Origin: Azolla caroliniana | Taxonomy: Eukaryota > Plantae > Polypodiophyta | Assembly: GCA_043228905.1 (NCBI GenBank) | Contig: JBHGNT010000010.1 | Span: 11,036,001 to 11,100,000, forward strand | Length of the DNA stretch: 64,000 nt | Direction: 5' to 3' | Shown: positions 6,291 to 60,482 of the stretch, in pieces | Layout: each line of letters opens with the position of its first letter | How positions within the stretch are numbered: position 1 is the stretch's first letter | Notes under the pieces: generated by a model | Seen by the model: only the letters and a program-made list of their open reading frames with translations | Databases searched by the model: none | Told to the model about the DNA's origin: nothing | Program-made: the position numbers and the translations under genes

Positions 6291-7705
6291 AGGTGTTTTC
6301 TCTGTTGACTAACACAATGGGTCGAACAACTTAATCACCAAGTCATGCTATCAAAAGATTGTGGTAGGAGATGAATGTTTGTCGACTATGAGAATTGCTT
6401 ACTCATACATTACACAGATATTAATTACTCAGACTTCCTTAATATAAGTATAAAATACAAACTTGATCGATTGACAATGATAGATATAATCTACATAGCA
6501 GAGAAACAGAACATACAACACAATATATACTCTAACTACCAAAATTATATTACTAATCAAAACAAACCGATAATGATACAATGCTCTCAACCCCTTTTTA
6601 TAGGCGACCTAAGAGACTTTTCCAAGATAGTACACTTGCACGTTCGGTGTTGAGAATCAAGCTCAACATAACACAACGTGTGAACACACCTTTTGATAAT
6701 CCATAATTACTCAAAGGTCTAGAGTCACACCACTACTCTCTACACATTAACTATGTGTCATAGAATCATATTCTATGACACATAACTAATGAGTTACATA
6801 TTCCCCATGACTATGAGTCTTCACATTCCCCAAGAGAGAGTAGTTATTGTAGTTAGTTAATGAAGAGAGAGGGTGACTATATATAAAGCACCCTTCTCTT
6901 ATTTCATACTAAGTCGGTTGTGACTCCTTGTTATGCTACATTTTGTAAATCTTATTCTACTTGTGAAATTACACCTTCTTCTTGAGTATTCTATTTTCCT
7001 CTTATTTATCTATCTTGAGTTCTCTTTTCTCTCCTCTCTTTTTCTCTCACACATATACGCACATAACGCACATCTATTCCGCTGCACAAGAATCATCATC
7101 GATTCTTTACATAGTATCAAAGCGATTTGGTAGCTTGATCTAGCCCACTCGCCTCATCGTGATCGTGTGTTGTGCTCTACGCCGACGTTCAAGAAGAAAC
7201 GGCTCATTGTTATCGTAGTACCACTACATAGCTCATGTTCGAGAGAGAAGGAAAAGAAGAAAGGAAGCTTAATCGACAATGAATACTCAAATGGGGAGCG
7301 CTCTCCCTAGCGCGAAGTTGGACCGAAACAACTTCGCATCTTGGGAGTACAAGGCTATTGGGGTTACATCAAGGGAGCTCAAGAAAACCGACCCGAGCCG
7401 AAAGACGCCGACTACGAAACATGGGAGCAAGCGGTAAGCCGAGTGATGTATTGCTTGGCGACATGTGTTCACGGCCACATGCTCGGCTACATTCGAGAAG
7501 CCAAGATGCCAAAGGAAGCATGGGAGAATCTACGAAAGATTTTTGCCACCAACACAACCGCGAGAAAGCTTCAACTCCGCCAAGAGTTGAACAACATCCA
7601 ACAAAGGGATATGTCCATCACGAGCTACACCTTGAAGATCAAGGAGCTTTGCGACTCACTCGGCTCGATAAGGGTCAATGTGGGCGATAATGAGATGGTG
7701 CAAAT

Positions 7706-16250: not shown

Positions 16251-17006
16251 TGTCGTAGTGTATTCCACACACTACGTGAAAACCATAAAATAATATATCC
16301 GAATTTAGATACATATAAATAAATAAATAATATATCAAAAGAATTTATCACGTGCATAGGGCAGGATTTGAACCATGCACCTCCACGTAGATAAACCCCA
16401 ACTTTACCATTGTAATAACTTATCTTTAGTGTTATAAATATAGATTTAATACGTATAAGACCTTTATTTACACATACCTTTATTAAAAGGTAAAAATCAT
16501 GTATTCTTTAGAGTGTGAATATTTTATTTACACGTGACATTAAAAGTGACTCGTGCACATCTAGCGTGCACGAGCCCTATATTTAGGAAATGACAAAACA
16601 TCACATGCACATTTAGTGTGCATGGGCACTTTAGGTGAAAAAGCATGAAGCCATGCTTAGCCTCTTCCATCTTTATATAAGGAGGAGAAAAATATGTATA
16701 TGGTTGTTGATTAATATAGAAGAATTGATCAATCTAATAGATTCGTGGGATTCACGAATTTTGCCATCTAATTGCTCTAATAATCTAAATATTGTTTTAA
16801 TTACACTAAACTCGTGGGATTCACGAGGTTACTATCTTACTTCTCTTCCTATTATTCATAACTAGCCTTAAGTTGTATTCCTCTTCCTCCTAGTCCAAAA
16901 CCTCGGCGGTTCCCACCCGACTCACGCAACGATCCGGAGCCGAAGGGCACGACAGCGTGCAAGACTACCCAAGAAGTTTTGGGTTGAGGCACTGTCGACA
17001 ACGACA
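16251..17006 (+). mobile_element. Solo LTR of a gypsy-type family related to 58526-59624
   Basis: TGTCGT...ACGACA ends, TSD TGCGT/TGTGT. Shares the GAACCGCCGxGGTTxTGGAC motif with the LTR at 58526. Confidence 0.8.
16355..16420 (-). ncRNA. tRNA-like Pol III cassette (degenerate) inside LTR
   Basis: Minus strand reads TATTACAATGGTAAAG...GAGGTGCATGGTTCAAATCCTGCCC. B box GGTTCAAATCC is canonical. Confidence 0.55.
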
Positions 17007-31129: not shown

Positions 31130-31600
31130 ACAGTCGATGGCAATGAAATCTTTCCATCTCTGATATGAAACCGGGCATGGGGATCTCTTCCCAACCGATG
31201 GACATTCTATCCCCCCATCAGAATCGAACATGAGTGTTTCTTCTCATACGGCTCGAGCGAATCTTTAGGTATATTACTCCACAAGAATTTCACTTTTATA
31301 AAGTTTTGTATTTCCTAGTAGTTTGAGTACCTCTTCCTCAAAGGAGGAGGATCTTATAGAGGAAAACAGAAAACAATGATTTCGTGGAGTGGCTTATGAC
31401 CCAAGTCCGCCTAATAAATTAATGAGGAAGCTTCTTGGATTATCTCTTATCCCATACATCGTGTATCGCTTCATCGTTGATGCGCTTGCGAACTCTAATC
31501 TAAAAGGTATAGGATCTTAACTTGTTACAATTTTGACTATATCTCCTCCCTTTGGATCATTTTTTTACCCTGACGGTTGAGCCATAAAATAGTTATTTTT
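31130..31600 (-). other. 3' part of the rpl16 group II intron (NUPT)
   Basis: Domain V-like GAGCCGTATGAGAAGAAACACTCATGTTCGATTCT on the minus strand at about 31221-31255. Right boundary uncertain. Confidence 0.7.
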
Positions 31601-31981: not shown

Positions 31982-32327
31982 TAGTTTACCCTAGAGGCAT
32001 GACACTATTAGCACGAAAGATTGGGTTCGAAACCCAAAATTTCACCTCTATATTAATTAACCATAGATATTTCTTAATTTTACCGGATGTCACTATGGAA
32101 TGTAGGGGTTGAACCCATGGAACTCCCAGTCTCCAATCGTAATTAGCTTTTTACCCTAGTGGTAGGTTGTTACACTATTAGCACTAAGTCTTGGGTTTAA
32201 AACCCAACTTCTCACCTCTCTAGTACATACTCCATATATATATATATATATATATATCTTAATGTAGGGGTTGAACCCATGACCTCATGGTCTCCATTGG
32301 GGAACAAAACCTTAGCAATTGAACTAA
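31982..32327. repeat. Two tandem ~165-bp units, each with convergent tRNA-like halves, directly upstream of the HSP90 gene
   Basis: TTACCCTAG..ACACTATTAGCAC..TTGGGTTCGAAACCCAA and AATGTAGGGGTTGAACCCATG each occur twice. Confidence 0.65.
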
Positions 32328-32531
32328 ATCCATCCATCCATCCATCCATCTGGGTTTCTTCTTCTTCTTCTTCTTCTTCTTCTTCTTCTCTTGTGCAGCA
32401 GAAGCTGAGCAGGACCAACAAACACTCCTATTACTACTGCTACTCGATTCACTCTTTCCTCTTCTTCTTCGTCATCATCGCCATTGTGCTGCTGCTCTCA
32501 GTACGGACACCATCGATCGTGGGCAGGATCC

Positions 32532-43506: not shown

Positions 43507-44816
43507 TGTAAAAGAATACATGTGCGGAAGTGTATGCGAAACACAGAGTACATAGTTCGGAGAATGATAGTTTGGTAAAACACAGAAAACGTAGAGATGG
43601 AGATGGAGAGGGAAAGACATAGAGAGAGAGAGAAGACAACTCAACTTTATTTCAAAATAATGACACTCTGTACATATTTCGTGCTCAGTGAGCACCTTTT
43701 ATACAAGCCGTGACTATCGGGCTGACACAAGTACTGACAGTACTTGACTGCTCATAAATGAGCCTACTACACTAACTCCCAAAATTATTCCTTACGAGGA
43801 ATACCATACTAACGGCCTTTCGGTTTACGCACCGATACGACCATGTTATGCGTACTGTTTTACGCACCCAATCTACGCATTGGGTTACACACCCAATGTT
43901 GAGCTTGTCTCTCAACACTCCCCCTCAAGCTCAACTTGAAGTTCTACATGTTCCTCCGGATCTTCACTCCGGCTCTCCTGGCTTCACGCCTTGCTCGCGC
44001 TCCTCGACTTGTTCAATTCCGCGCGCCTCGACCCTTTCGGTCGGCTTGTCTGCTCGTTTGGCCCTTCTCAGCTCCTTTGCTATCACAGTGTTGGCGCCTC
44101 TTCTGCTACCCTTTCCTCCGCTTGGCCCTCAGTCGATTCATGATGTCCAAATCGAACATTTCGATTGAATCGGTCTCTTCCGATTCAATTCCACTTTCAT
44201 CCAAATTGGTTGTCTCCAATTCGTCTTTAGCCTTTAGGCCTTTGACAATGTCAGACCACGTCTTGGTCTTGGCCTTACCTACTCCTTGTTCGGCTGTCTT
44301 CGGCCCTTCCCTAAGATTACGACCCTTGCTCCCTTCTTCAGCTTTTTCAGCCGGCCTCAAAATTGAATTCTTTATCCGACTCCACGTCTCGGTCAATTCC
44401 GCTCCTTCCACACTCTTGTTCCTGTTCTTCCTTTCTCCCCCTCAAGTTCGACGTGTCGAGGTGATGCAACCCAAGCTCACCCAAGAAATTCCACAACTTG
44501 TCGACACCAAGGAGCTTGGCGAAGATGTCGGCAACCTGACAATCCGTCAGAACATACACCAGTTCGACTTCACCTGAAAGGCCACGCTCGCAGACAAAGT
44601 GATAGTGCACCTCAATGTGCTTGGTCCGGGCGTGAAAGATGAGGTTTTTCACAAGTTGGATGCTGCTGAGGTTATCACAGTAGATCGTCGTCGGATCGGA
44701 CACCCCCACATGCAGATCCCGTAATAGCCGCTTCAGCCAAATGACTTCGCACGTAATAATAGTCGCCCCTCGATATTCAGCCTCCGTGCTCGACAATGTT
44801 ACTGTCGGCTGTCATG

Positions 44817-44886
44817 ATAGGGCAAGACTTGAACCCATGACCTTATGGTATATGGGTCGAGCTCTTAACCATCACACCATCTATTG
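44817..44886 (-). ncRNA. tRNA-like Pol III cassette at LTR 5' end (second copy ~50849-50918)
   Basis: Minus strand reads TGGTGTGATGGTTAAGAGC...AAGGTCATGGGTTC(A/G)AGTCTTGCC. Confidence 0.6.
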
Positions 44887-45331
44887 TAATTCATAAGATA
44901 TTATTTTCATTTATGTTTTATTATAAGAAAGTAATGTATATTCCAGATTTCTCTGGAACATTCTAGAAGTTTCAAGATTACTCCTGACAACACTATAAAA
45001 GAAGGCACTAGGCATTATGTTGAACCAAATTGGTTCAACGCCAGTCTTAAGCCTCTCAGCCGCTTTGTACTTATCTTTTCACATAATATATTAGCTGTTG
45101 TCATCATCTTTCTCTCTCTCTCATCCTCGCTATCTCTCTCTCTCTCTCCTCTTCTCACTTCCTCTCTTGGGAATCTTACGCAGTCTCGTCCTCTTAGTAC
45201 TAATAGTACTGCTCTTCTTAGTACTAATTCCATCTCTGCTTTAGTACTATTCCTGACAGTTTGAACCAATTTGTCCTTTCCTCCAGCCTACTTGTCGTTC
45301 TCCCTCATCCTCCTACCCTTTTCCCTATACT

Positions 45332-50830: not shown

Positions 50831-53800
50831 GGGGGAGATAGTGTCATGATATGGCAAGACTCGAACCCATGACCTTATGGTATATGGGTCGAGCTCTTAA
50901 CCATCACACCATCTATTGTAATTCATAGGATATTATTTTCATTTATGTTTTATTATAAGAAAGTAATGTATATTCCAGATTTCTCTGGAACATTCTAGAA
51001 GTTTCAGGATTACTCCTGACAACACTATAAAAGAAGGCACTAGGCATTATGTTGAACCAAATTGGTTCAACGCCAGTCTTAACCCTCTCAGCCGCTTTGT
51101 ACTTATCTTTTCACATAATATATTAGCTGCTGTCATCATCTTTCTCTCTCTCTCATCCTCGCTATCTCTCTCTCTCACTCTCTCCTCTTCTCACTTCCTC
51201 TCTTGGGAATCTTACGCAGTCTCGTCCTCTTAGTACTAATAGTACTGCTCTTCTTAGTACTAATTCCATCTCTGCTTTAGTACTATTCCTGACATCGGCT
51301 GCTTCTTACTACTCCATGCGATCGCCGCACTTCCTAATGAGAAGGCGTATCCGGACGTGGATCTACGATCGTGGGCATTTCCGGCCCAATCGGCATCCCT
51401 GTAGCCAACCAATTGTTCGGTTACACCTGCCCGATACAACAACGCCATGTCTTTCGTGCCGCTGACATATCGCAATATCCGTTGCACGCACTGAAAGTGT
51501 TTGGCCATAGGCTATGACATGAATTGACTGATCAGGCCGACTAAATAACTGAGATCCAACTGAGTAATCGTCAAATAGATAAGGCTTCCAACAATTTTTC
51601 GGAACCGTGTCGGGTCGCACACCTTTCCCGAATCTAGGCGAAGCTTCACGTTTCTATCCAAAGGGGTTGAGATGGGCTTACAATCAGTCTGTTATCCCGA
51701 ACTTGAAGAGCATATTCAACCCGCAATGACGCTGGCTGATCAATATGCTCTCGAGGGTGCGGATCACTTCGATCCTGAGGAAGTAATGAAGGTCTCCAAG
51801 ATTCTTCATGTCAAATGATGCCGCAAGTTGAGACTTTACACGATGGATTTCTTCCAAGTCGGCACCGGCGATGACTAAATCATCAACATAAAGGAAAAGA
51901 CTTACCGGTCCATATTGACCTTGCCGAACAAATAGAGAAGAGTCTGATTTCGACATTGTAAACCCCATCCTACGCAGTTGATGAGTAATCTTCGCGTTCA
52001 TGGCTCGCGGGGCTTGCTTAAGTCTATAGAGTGACTTCTTCAGTCGGCAAACTGCCGAGGTGTTTTGTTCGGATAGAAATCCGGGGGGCTGTACCATGTA
52101 CTTGTTCCTCAAGATCACCTTGTAGGAACGTGTTCTTTACATCCATCTGATGTAAGTGCCACCCCCTTGCCGCAACTACGGCTAGCAGAACACGCACGGT
52201 AGTCATCTTCACGATAGGCGCGAAAGTCTCGTCGTAGTCCACGCCGTGCTTCTGCGCGTAGCCTTTCGCAACTAAACGAACCTTGTATCGATTGATAGAG
52301 CCGTTGGTGTTGTATTTCACTTTATACACCCACCTGCATCCGATCGGCTTAACACCCTTCGGTGCATCAACCAGGTCCCAAGTCTTATTGTCCGTTAAAG
52401 CACGCATCTCTTCCCCCATCGCAGCACGCCAATTTGCGTCTTTCGCCGCTTCTGCGTAGCTCTCTGGCTCACACACTTTCGCCACTTGCGTCATGTACGC
52501 ATAATGATGCGCCATGTACTCATTATACCCATACCTCTTTATGGGGTTCTTCTGGTGGGTAGATCGGCATAATTCAGAATTACCTGATTTTACAGCTTTT
52601 TCAGCTGATTTTGATCTCTTCCGTAGAGGTTCCTTTTCAGTTTGCCCGTAGTCAGACTCGCTCTGATCTGACTCGGCATTGTCGAAATAATACTCCGACA
52701 TCCTTTTCTTCCCTTTCTCCTTGCGCATAAACCGTCTCCTCGGTTTTTTACGTGGGGACATCCCGACTGAGTCTTCACTACTCGCGGTCTCTTCATTTGG
52801 TTGGCCATTTCGGTCCAACCCCTCATTCGGCCCACTCAGCCGAAATGAGATCAGACTCTCTCTCAGAGCTCCGATGTCCTCATCATGCAGAGGCATCTTA
52901 GCCTTGCTGACTTCTTCTTCAGAATTTGGAATGGAGTCATGAGGTACTGGAGGGGAACACGACATCTTGACTTACGTGTAATTCCTTTGTTCAGGGGTGA
53001 TAATAGTTATACCCCTTCTGCTCGTCTGGATAGCCAACTAAGATGTACTTTTCGGCTTTGGCGTCCAGATTCCTCCTCTTTTCCTTCAGCACATGCACAT
53101 ATGCAATGCTACCGAAAATCCTCAAGTGTGCCAGGAAGCGGACTTGTCGAACTCGACATCTCGACTTACGCGTACTTCCTTTGTTCGGGGGTGATAACAC
53201 TTATACCCCTTCTGCTCGTCTAGATAACCAACTAAGATGTACTTTTCGGCTTTGGCATCCAACTTCCTCCTCTTTTCCTTCGGCACATGCACATATGCAA
53301 TGCTACCGAAAATCCTCAAGTGTGCCAAGTTCGGCTTCTTCCTGAAATACAACTCATGTGGCGACACTCCATTGGGGAATGGAAGTCGGTGTTGTTTTCC
53401 CATCTAGCAGAATTCGCAGACTTGGCTATTCCGGCCTCGAAATTTCGGCAAGCCGAACACAATGTTCTTCGTCTGCATTTCACGAAGCCGCGGGAAGTTA
53501 ATATGGCTGAACCGCTTATGCCACAGGTCGATGTACGACTCGACCTTCTGCCCTTTCGCAAACATAGCGGTGCCCACATTGTTGGTTTCGAGGATAAACA
53601 TCCTCCGTTCACGGCACCCTTGCGCAATTACCTTGCCTTCCTCTTCTATGAAGTAGCCTAGATGCGTGAATCGAACTTGCATCCCTTGGTCGACGATCTG
53701 TCCGACCGACACCAGGTTCTTCATTATTGTCGGGACGTGCAACACGTTCATGAGCTTCCCTTTCTGCCCGATGTGGATGAGGGGAACTTCACCAACATGT

Positions 53801-57021: not shown

Positions 57022-58525
57022 TGTCACGGACGGGTGGAATGAGGCTAAGTACTAAGAGAGAGCAAGAGCATAAGCAAGATCACAAGATTGTCAAGGACAA
57101 GTAGACGAGGCTCAATATTAAGAGATGGCGGGAGAGAGAGCATAGACAAGAGAACAAGCAAGAGAGAGGATAAACAAATAAACAAGAACTGTATATGCTT
57201 TCGTAACTGGTGTTGTTCACCTTGATTGTAATCAAGGTGCACCCCAGTATTTATACAAGAATGTGGAGGTATGCATGAAAGCTAGAAGACTTGTAGAGAG
57301 TGCATGGAAACTTGTAGAGAGTGCATGAAGATGCATGCTGTAGAAGGTTCTTGAAAGTTCTAGTGATCAATCTATAATGAAATAAGTTGAGTCGTACACA
57401 ATATAATAATACATAGATGGATGTAGCTCAATTGGTAAGGTTGCCCAATAAGAACAAAAGGTCATGGGTTCAACCCCCACCATTCCATGTGGCATCCTGT
57501 CTATGACATTATCCTCCCTCTAAGGCCACCTCTTTGGACCCGCGACTAGTTTTTGTGGATAACGTTCATGAAATGCTCGAACTATGTCCGGGGCATGTTT
57601 GAGATGATGTGTTGGCTCCCATGTTGCTTCGGAGATCGGGTACCCTTTCCAGAGGACAAGGTATTGATGTTGACGACGGAAGAGACGAGAGTCGAGAATT
57701 TGGTCGACCTCATATTCTTCTCCAGTTGAGAGCTGGATTGGTGGTGGAGGAGATGGGTGTCGACTGGGGATTTCAGATATATGGTGAGGTTCTAGAAAGG
57801 AGACGTGGAATACATTATGAATACGAAAGTGGGATGGTAGATCTAAGTGGACAACCATGGAACCAATTTTCTCAATGATTCGGAAAGGGCCTAAATTCTT
57901 GTAATCAAGCTTCGGACAAGGATGAGTGGTGGCAATATTGTGACGGAGAAGCCAAAGAAAGTCTCCTACCTCGAACTGGGGAGCATCGAAGCGATGACGG
58001 TCAGCTTTCTCCTTGTAGCATTCGCCAGTGAGGGTGAGCTTCAAGGAAAGATCGCGATGTACATCTTCCAAGAGACATGCTCGGTCCTCCGCAGAAGGAT
58101 TGACAGAGTCAGAGGGAAGCGAAATGTTGAAGCGGGGGTGGAGACCGTAGTTGACGAAAAATGGAGTAACTCCTGTAGATGCATGCAGAGAGTTGTTGTA
58201 GGCGAACTCGGCAAGTGGGAGAAGGTCAACCCAATTGTCTTGTTGGTGACTAAGAGAGCACCACAAGTATTGTTCCAAGATTTGATTAACTTGCTCCATT
58301 TGTCCATTGGTTTGCGGATGATAAGCGGAAGATAGATTCATAGTACAACTGAAGATTTGCAAAAGGCACCGCCAGAAATTGGAAACAAATTATGGTCCTC
58401 AATCAGAAGTGATATTGTTCGGGAGACCATGTAGTCAAACCACATTTTTGAAAAACAAATTGGCCGTTTCCTTTCCAATAATGGTTTTGGCATATGGAGC
58501 AAAATCAGTCATCTTGGTGAAACGA
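57022..58525 (-). mobile_element. Second chromovirus, 3' part (integrase, chromodomain, PPT 57509-57521, 3' LTR 57022-57508)
   Basis: HPQTNGQ, LPLAEFAYNN, GPFRI, IHNVFHVS, EYEVDQILDSR..YLVLWKGY..TWEP. Confidence 0.92.
57418..57488 (+). ncRNA. tRNA-like cassette near the LTR 5' end, antisense to the element
   Basis: TGGATG-TAGCTCAATTGGTAAGG...AGGTC-ATGGG-TTCAACC-CCCAC-CATTCCA: A box, B box, T stem and near-complementary acceptor arms. Confidence 0.65.
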
Positions 58526-58992
58526 TGTCGTGAAGATCCGTCACTACGTGCGGATCGTAAGGCAGAACCGCCGGGGTTCTGGACCGGAAGGATTCGAAGT
58601 TGCACTAGCTTTAGCGAGAAAGGAATTAAGATAGATTGGAAGAGAAAGAGATTGAGATAAGATAGAACGCTTGATTTTACATTGAGAAAGAGCTTAAGAT
58701 TGGATCCTTGACTTTAGGTTTAAGAAACAAGATACACCATCAATTGGAGAACGAATCTTCTTCTTCTTACATTCTTGAATCATACATAACATCTTTTTAT
58801 CTTTTTCATCCATCCTTTTATAGATGCTCCCATGCATATGATGCATGCGGGTACAAGACATGCATACAATGCATGGAATGCATGTGATGCATGTTTGCCA
58901 TTTGGCGCTCATGCATCACATGTCACTCAATCAAGCTCTAATATGAGAATTTACATGTAAAACTATAATGATAAGAAAAACATTTCTAAGGA

Positions 58993-59070
58993 AATGTCAT
59001 AGCTTAGTGGTAAGTCTATAGACTCTCAAAGTGGAGGTGTAAGGATCAAGTCTTCACTTGAACTCCTTTT
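58993..59070 (+). ncRNA. tRNA-like Pol III cassette in LTR, antisense to the element
   Basis: A box TAGCTTAGTGG (59000-59010), B-box-like GGATCAAGTC (59043-59052), then TTTT. Confidence 0.55.
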
Positions 59071-60482
59071 GAATATACATTATATATATATATATATATA
59101 TATATGTTTAATATTAATGTATTTTTACAAGGCGTTTCTCTGTCCGGTTGTCGTTCCGTCGCCGGATGATGCCGGATGCCGGTAGGCGATCTCGCCAGCT
59201 CCATCGCCGGTCGCCGTCGCCGAATTCGTCCAAAACACATGGTTATATGCATCTGGCTACATCCATTCGTTAAGTCATATAACTTAACCTTTCTATGCTT
59301 CACACATAGAGACAAAGAGAACAACTTTTGCTTTGCATTATATATGGTGGGATCTTTATTTGTCCTGTTTATGTGGGATACATATTTTTCTCTTCTTCTT
59401 TGCAAACTTCATACCCACATAACTTGACACTTAGATGTCTATTTCCTAAGTAGTAAAGTACATTGAGAAGTTCTTCAAGACCTCCATCTTTTTTGTACCA
59501 AGATATTAAACTTATTTAAAATAGTATCTTTACTATTATTGTTTTATATTTCGTGAGAAGAACCACACTCGATTTCATATGTTCCTTACAAGTTTCACAC
59601 TATCGCTGAAAATCTTCACGACATCCACCCCCACCAAACCGCACGTCCTCGGGTACGTGCCAAGAAGAGAGACTGCAAGATTTCAGCGACAGTGATCAAT
59701 CAGATTCTTCCACGTCTTCATTCACATCTGTTCTATTACCTTCATCATCAAGGTGATCGAGGTCAGGATCCTCGTCTTGTCTTTTCTTGAAAATCTTTAC
59801 TCTTTTTCCCGCAATGGGTATGGCCAGCCTTGATCCATCTAGCTCCGCAAGGTGGTATGTTGCATTGTCGTTGGCACTTATCACTATATACGGTATGAAC
59901 CATCTTCTTGTGAACTTCCTTGTTGTACTGTGTTGATTGTCAAGGCTGTTGTCATAGACCAATACCCAATCTCTTTCTTCGATCTTCTTGGGATGCAGTT
60001 AATGCGTCTTGTCGAACTGAATTTTGGTCTTCACTCGGGCTACCTCCATCATTTTTCGTGCATGTTCTAGATCTTCAGGTCTCTTTTCAAGTTGCCTTAT
60101 CCATGCCGCTAATAATTCTTCTCGGCTCATCTTGTTCTCCCATGGTATCGCTACCCATGAGGCGATCGTCCTTTCAATAGGCAATACCGGCTTTTGTCCA
60201 TACATAAGCTCTGTTGGCATATACCTCGTCACAGAGCTGTGTGTCGTTCTGTCGGCCCACAAGGCATAGGGCAATAGTCGTGGCCAATTCCCGGCTCGAC
60301 CGTTGCATGCTCGTACGATGGCTTTGACGATAGGTCCATGCCCTCACTCGATCTTCCCATTCGCTTCTGGATTATAGGGAGTCGTGAGGGAGAGCTTCAC
60401 GCATAGTTGTTCAAAGAGCTCCATTGCTTCGTGTGCATCCAACTCCCCTCGGTCGACAACTATCTTTCCCACACATCTGTAT

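Follow-up and report, generated by a model that had tools for sequence, protein, structure and literature searches.

A tRNA-derived internal promoter, composed of an A box and a B box at a fixed spacing, is carried in the U3 region of protein-coding retrotransposons in this genome. We show that this module is present in the LTRs with a bias in position, that its orientation is biased towards antisense, and that its boxes are conserved while the cloverleaf is lost. In our preferred reading, to which we assign a probability of roughly 45%, the module is a selected TFIIIC-type DNA element and likely a chromatin barrier. The relevant features of the window, i.e., the whole stretch of 64,000 nucleotides that was analysed, are collected in Table 1.

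Table 1. Modules, LTR landmarks and a free repeat in the window.
Feature	Position	Strand	Remarks
Solo LTR, 704 bp, young Phygy-type family B	16251..16954	+	4-bp duplication GCGT; host is a copia integrase gene
Antisense module, family B	16337..16417	-	A box from 16417, B box to 16364, T4 16340-16337
Free two-headed tRNA-like repeat, degraded, partly duplicated, outside any LTR	31982..32335	.	
Antisense module, 5' LTR (44810-45258), Tcn1-type chromovirus family C	44825..44880	-	
Antisense module, 3' LTR (50842-51294) of the same family C element	50857..50912	-	
Antisense module, Tcn1-type LTR (57022-57508, minus), family D	57424..57477	+	85% identical to head of free SINE-like repeat
3' LTR, 1098 bp, Phygy-type gypsy family A	58526..59623	-	ends TGTCGTGAAG...CTTCACGACA
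CATG-rich boxes and TATA, LTR Pol II promoter, family A	58814..58925	-	TATA-like 58823-58814; start site inferred
Module A box, family A, antisense to element	59000..59012	+	TAGCTTAGTGG at 59000
GAGGT, tRNA variable-loop signature, family A module	59034..59038	+	conserved though absent from search matrix
Module B box, family A	59043..59052	+	GGATCAAGTC
T4 (TTTT), candidate Pol III terminator, family A	59067..59070	+	
Polypurine tract preceding 3' LTR, family A	59624..59640	-	

Carriers of the module and their lineages

A preliminary description had placed the family A LTR at 58526-59624 on the minus strand. The strand is borne out by the polypurine tract, which begins at 59624, and by a mate LTR, but the LTR ends at 59623, one base short of the earlier estimate. 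The mate lies beyond the window, near G000:C10:11109323-11110426, and is 92.8% identical to 58526-59623; about 15 kb with nested insertions separate the two, and TCGT stands at both outer ends of the element. The A box motif, the B box and the TTTT run occur on the plus strand exactly where they had been reported, and the module precedes the TATA-like box by about 180-250 nt, which places it in U3. The B box of family A has an A at tRNA position 54, as do host initiator tRNA-Met genes, and because 68 host matches of the initiator-Met pattern share its GATC, this B box is not in itself defective.

The family B solo LTR begins at 16251 as proposed, but it does not reach 17006: the GCGT/GCGT duplication sets its end at 16954, and bases 16955-17006 belong to the integrase of the copia element that the LTR interrupts. 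Its minus-strand tRNA-like motifs, TATTACAATGG...GGTTCAAATCC, were found as originally written, with an A-to-B-box span of 16417-16364. The TATA boxes are at element positions 802 and 423, and the modules of families A and B both lie upstream of the TATA box and on the strand opposite to the element; therefore both are in U3 and antisense, in agreement with the preliminary description.

The assignment of these two LTRs to a gypsy lineage other than the chromoviruses also holds, as the elements lack a chromodomain and fall in a separate RT clade far from the Tcn1 type. Pfam detected RT, RNase H and integrase, and no Chromo domain, in a family B pol (L078) and a family A integrase ORF (L043). 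The Phygy-type PBS is the complement of the 3' 18 nt of host tRNA-Trp, the 7.1-kb copies contain gag and pol ORFs, and the 4-bp target duplications of family B (CCGT, ACGT, CCGT and GCGT in L077-L080) are all NCGT. An RT tree of 36 fragments, all from this analysis and without reference sequences, was rooted at its midpoint and has some long branches that the program flagged. With supports of 96-100 it separates Phygy-type (17 rows), OTA-like (5) and chromovirus (14) groups, the Phygy-type clade having 100/100; named homologues are from Riccia and Adiantum. On the basis of the PBS, the NCGT duplication and the absence of a chromodomain, we class families A and B as Phygy-type non-chromoviruses.

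Phygy was described as a moss clade of non-chromovirus Ty3/gypsy elements marked by an NCGN target preference (PMC6317226). Families A and B resemble that description (Neumann 2019, PMC6317226) in being short, in having an interior filled by the polyprotein, in lacking a chromodomain and in their NCGN target preference, and they differ from it in possessing an LTR module, of which the available part of that source makes no mention. A third, OTA-like gypsy clade with TGTTACC ends (G000:C10:10836599, C7:12066625, C7:12096165) is without the module, and in this clade a tRNA-3'-end-like sequence replaces the polypurine tract.

Families C and D are assigned to the Tcn1 type by the chromodomains that Pfam detected in both and by the self-priming feature of Tcn1 in family C, where the sequence that follows the 5' LTR is the complement of an LTR stretch just past the TATA box. 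Modules of the C and D types lie 15-40 nt from the LTR end and have no T4 inside the LTR. Tcn1 LTRs also contain TTCTAGAA-type repeats upstream of TATA (window 44950-44975; G000:C10:11005600-11005800), which we take to resemble heat-shock elements.

Over about 84 nt, the module of family D shares 83-88% identity with the head of a free, roughly 200-bp repeat (window 31982-32335; L206-L235), of which a first look gave 1946 candidates. In this repeat, two tRNA-like heads face each other; it ends in an A/GA tail and is sited in (GA)n microsatellites. Among 29 copies, 25 have upstream (GA)n and 21 have the A/GA tail at about 200 nt, three of the latter with an internal T4; any target duplications are masked by the GA repeats. 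A literature search on moss SINEs returned no description of such a free repeat. Judging from their identity, we regard the family D module and the free repeat as a visible case of SINE-LTR exchange, for which either direction fits. Also in the window, the minus strand of 31177-31261 contains a fragment that resembles domain V of a group II intron (below the Rfam gathering threshold, E 0.02-0.03) and is probably organelle-derived DNA.

Distribution in the genome and among relatives

A weight matrix for the A and B boxes, derived from host tRNA genes alone, was run over 676 kb, made up of the window with flanking sequence and of four 100-kb tiles (two picked around family B matches). It returned 55 matches of at least 20 bits, compared with 1, 2 and 1 in three shuffles, and a 22-letter pattern covering families A and B has 210 exact matches in the genome, compared with 0 for the reversed control; hence the module matches are not due to chance. 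When LTR pairs were classed by PBS, antisense modules of at least 17 bits were present in 14/18 Phygy pairs (11 of the 18 from loci fetched with module-containing queries), 6/7 Tcn1 pairs, 0/13 copia pairs and 0/3 OTA-like pairs. The five scanned regions alone give 4/7 for Phygy. The three misses among these seven pairs comprise two truncated alignments with modules just outside them and one family B copy at 14.9 bits. In family A the module is present family-wide, in 30/30 of the best copies, which were picked by a module-containing query. Orientation and position are not random: the antisense bias is strong, although sense copies nevertheless occur.

The preliminary description saw no cassette in copia LTRs. 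This is true of all 13 sampled pairs but not of the whole genome, as one low-copy copia family with 23 genome matches does carry the module. Its representative L360 has 463-bp LTRs (885-1346, 6473-6935), a Met PBS and a copia RT. The module is antisense, about 25-85 nt from the LTR start (L360; L347-L358), and is followed by CATG-rich boxes and TATA, as in gypsy LTRs; nine of the 12 loci score 14-20 bits and three are without a match. It is nearest to the C-type modules of Tcn1 (0.63-0.73, against a median of 0.55), which is suggestive, if no proof, of a transfer between the two. Some non-coding derivatives of 1.6-3.6 kb also carry the module.

In a metagenome survey, 57 of 80 Phygy-like loci were scanned, mostly non-independent loci of a single record series, and a clear antisense module was present in 10/57 of these relatives (58-95% pol identity). 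In their non-coding parts, 16 antisense and 11 sense matches reached 17 bits or more, where shuffles gave about 1.0 and 0.4, respectively; their coding parts contain 2, which is the shuffle level. Three relatives (L243, L245 and L247) have an LTR-side sense module and no antisense one, that of L245 being upstream of TATA and aimed at it; at three loci, two of them also among the 10 antisense carriers, a sense module lies downstream of TATA. No module was found in 14 relatives with long LTR-side cover, including L255 near family A, and the module is therefore dispensable. The remaining loci were too short or doubtful for a module call. Doubtful matches of 17-18.4 bits in L241, L242, L257, L270, L295 (sense) and L315 were not counted, and a match in L266, located inside an inserted Tcn1-type LTR, was left out of the Phygy count. 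In a quick RT tree, the carriers are spread across the tree and the non-carriers include close kin of family A. Among Tf1/Tcn1-like contigs of IMG/VR (41-49% identity), 0/10 had matches of at least 15 bits, and IMG/VR yielded no Phygy relative.

In some Phygy LTRs (L154:5037-5672, L275:6492-7082 and L269), TATA is preceded by a tandem pair of antisense modules and followed, after about 75-125 nt, by a sense module, such that the promoter is bracketed by outward-facing units. At this sense position, nothing stronger than a weak remnant (5.8 bits) is left in family A.

Other features were met in these LTRs. A GCCAAATGGC plus CATGCA motif block (window 58828-58925; L266:3970-4060) is common to Phygy families A, E and F and to the Tcn1-type LTR in L266. 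We assume that it resembles RY and YY1-type sites, and it may represent a U3 regulatory kit that was shared or exchanged. In L255 (840-1240), a GC-rich tandem array occupies the module site of its close relative family A, and family A LTR segments are tandemly repeated with a period of about 2.5 kb in L045 and at G000:C13:1927147-1932435.

Conservation, origin and possible function

Among 22 Phygy modules, identity is 0.81 and 0.86 in the boxes, 0.86 in the variable loop, 0.55 in the anticodon arm and 0.53-0.58 in the flanks; as the boxes are part of the search matrix and the variable loop is not, the conservation of the boxes is partly built in by the finding method. In two blocks that can be aligned through their flanks from the module to TATA (7 and 8 sequences), identity is 0.83 and 0.92 for the B box, 0.90 and 0.85 for the variable loop, 0.75 and 0.78 for the A box, 0.48 and 0.59 for the anticodon arm, and 0.44-0.51 for the flanks. 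Indels are frequent in the flanks of these blocks and nearly absent from the module.

Cloverleaf positions of the 22 modules pair in 48.4% of cells, against 48.6% when shuffled, and RNAalifold predicted no pair for this set. In the window, ARAGORN called 0 tRNA genes and Rfam gave no tRNA match. With no ARAGORN or Rfam call and unpaired cloverleaf stems, a functional tRNA gene is ruled out, as is a conserved RNA structure, given the lack of covariation and pairing at shuffle level.

That boxes and spacing are kept while structure is not suggests a DNA element to which a protein binds rather than an RNA shape, and the centring of conservation on the promoter boxes supports the earlier suggestion of a function. 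On the other hand, the notion that the cassette is the same module in Phygy elements and chromoviruses is not sustained. Between the boxes, Phygy-Tcn1 identity (0.44) is no higher than Phygy-host tRNA identity (0.44), compared with 0.53-0.54 within lineages; therefore, the sequences give no sign of exchange between Phygy and Tcn1. Module A is 47-48% identical to the Tcn1 modules of the window, under the cross-lineage mean of 58%, and the best value in 220 Phygy-Tcn1 pairs (0.73; mean 0.58, sd 0.05) is about the expected maximum of so many pairs. The preliminary description had offered convergent capture or exchange between lineages. Direct Phygy-Tcn1 exchange gains no support, with identity at background; independent capture fits, and so does ancient inheritance with repeated loss.

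The modules likely originated from SINE-like tRNA heads that were captured more than once. No parent tRNA could be named: identities are at best 0.58-0.74 with a host set that is incomplete, Trp and initiator Met giving 0.46-0.50, while module A reaches a best core identity of 0.71 to a partial set of host tRNAs. Long tandem arrays of single tRNA genes were encountered in G000:C118, C49, C201, C12:15.08-15.11 Mb, C8:17.80 Mb and C5:17.99 Mb; the tRNAs so arrayed are initiator Met (period about 1540 bp), Val, Trp and Lys.

SINE heads may also have landed in LTRs as neutral relics, fixed by hitchhiking and now being lost, in which case the antisense bias would reflect the removal of harmful sense insertions. 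The identity between the family D module and the free-repeat head is in line with this account, and so are the patchy presence among relatives and the lack of a conservation peak. Within family A, module conservation (0.94-0.96) shows no excess over the flanks (0.92-0.98), and in whole-LTR profiles of B-like and C-like LTRs the boxes rank in the top 26-47% of windows without the module being singled out, the C-like set having held false LTR calls. We nevertheless consider such relics unlikely, because boxes and spacing are kept while the anticodon arm drops to flank level in orthologous blocks, because the variable loop is conserved outside the reach of the matrix, and because tandem duplicate modules have intact boxes in both copies.

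It is improbable, too, that Pol III transcribes the module as an active gene and that the resulting short antisense RNA has a role. At its 3' end the genomic RNA contains U3, and such an RNA, being complementary to it, might hold down copy number or direct small-RNA silencing. The strong orientation bias speaks for it, as does a T4 within 40 nt past the B box in 25/55 modules, compared with 22/155 host tRNA calls (a redundant set that includes organelle-type genes, the LTRs being AT-rich). Single modules also form hairpins, with z-scores of -2.2 (B), -3.2 (B2) and -5.2 (C). However, no structure is common to the modules, shuffled sequences fold as well as module A does (z -1.16), and the T4-less C- and D-type Tcn1 modules would give an RNA without a fixed end. 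A role in integration or priming is highly improbable and largely refuted for these families: a landing pad like that of Ty3, which integrates near Pol III start sites (PMC6673722), finds no support, as 26 family A, 52 family B and 17 family C matches have no alignment break in or beside the module and thus no insertion hotspot there, and a self-made reverse-transcription primer is ruled out because the module RNA pairs with the tRNA-Trp-type PBS region over at most 6 nt.

A TFIIIC-type element would instead act as DNA, with TFIIIC bound on the outer side of the LTR Pol II promoter and the bound module forming a barrier that keeps this promoter open within silenced chromatin. The A/B-box elements of tRNA genes are bound by TFIIIC. 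As the module is aimed away from TATA, Pol III would be kept from running into the Pol II promoter. The antisense orientation implies that the module cannot make the RNA of the element, and a backward unit in full-size coding elements thus needs another job; its outer-side place, its tandem duplication and the outward sense unit that families E and F have past TATA are best accommodated by a barrier. It must be said that a pure barrier need not have an orientation, and the dispensability in 14 relatives, the sense modules in L243, L245 and L247, and the lack of a module peak in the whole-LTR profile or within family A all count against it. We infer the binding of TFIIIC; the barrier role, drawn by analogy with yeast, is the most conjectural part of our reading. 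In yeast, tRNA genes, like related elements of Pol III promoters, are reported as chromatin boundaries (PMC5368702), and according to the available part of the same review this role has been demonstrated in yeast only (PMC5368702).

A still broader proposal, which we regard as possible and rather doubtful, is that three distant groups of protein-coding retrotransposons, namely Phygy, Tcn1 and one copia family, converged on a self-carried insulator of the tRNA-gene type, taken from SINE-like repeats and facing away from the LTR promoter, sometimes on both sides of it, for counter-silencing. If the insulator reading is true, thousands of LTRs would be dispersed TFIIIC sites that shape host heterochromatin. 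A barrier would show how retrotransposons remain active in heterochromatin, and would offer a direct plant test of tDNA/TFIIIC insulation.

Comparison with known systems

Pol III promoters in LTRs are known from miniature non-coding elements, in which they are thought to make the element RNA. In the literature searched, which leaves subscription journals and Repbase notes outside its coverage, tRNA-like modules lying antisense in the LTRs of autonomous moss elements are nowhere described. The available text of a sugar-beet preprint mentions such motifs for TRIMs only (10.64898/2026.03.01.708851), and passages on Tcn1 in another paper refer to TATA and CAAT boxes without mentioning a module of this kind (PMC2864245).

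Helenus and TRIMp3 (Kojima 2024) are non-coding TRIMs of 311-1263 bp, proposed to be transcribed by Pol III, with Selaginella as the sole plant case in the accessible portion of that paper (PMC10886601). Like the LTRs studied here, theirs contain a tRNA-like sequence in which only boxes A and B are conserved, with no functional tRNA and no primer role, and the origin proposed for Helenus, a SINE insertion into an LTR, is similar to the module source proposed above (PMC10886601). In contrast to these non-coding elements of at most about 1.3 kb, the carriers in this genome are gag-pol gypsy and copia elements of 5.5-7.1 kb with their own TATA. The Pol III unit of Helenus is presumably sense, given its proposed promoter role, the passages available giving no outright orientation (PMC10886601), whereas the module described here is antisense and faces away from TATA. 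The autonomous partners of Helenus were argued to need Pol II, and a brief aside in the same paper has it that 'not a few LTRs' are similar to tRNA (PMC10886601). Cassandra is likewise a plant retroelement with a Pol III promoter signature in both LTRs; however, its signature is of the 5S type, the element is non-autonomous and the Pol III unit yields the element RNA (PMC10886601), whereas the present modules are of the tRNA type and reside in coding elements.

The yeast tDNA/TFIIIC boundaries offer a parallel for the proposed role in the outer U3, as they too are A/B-box elements at the edge of a chromatin domain, but they are host genes, whereas the modules are cargo of mobile elements (PMC5368702). 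Finally, the free repeat resembles the Twin SINE of Culex, a short repeat with two tRNA-related regions (PMC3286476); what may set the repeat found here apart from Twin is that its heads face each other, along with its (GA)n sites. Through its similarity to the head of this repeat, the family D module provides a concrete case of the SINE-LTR traffic that has been proposed for the origin of Helenus and Cassandra.
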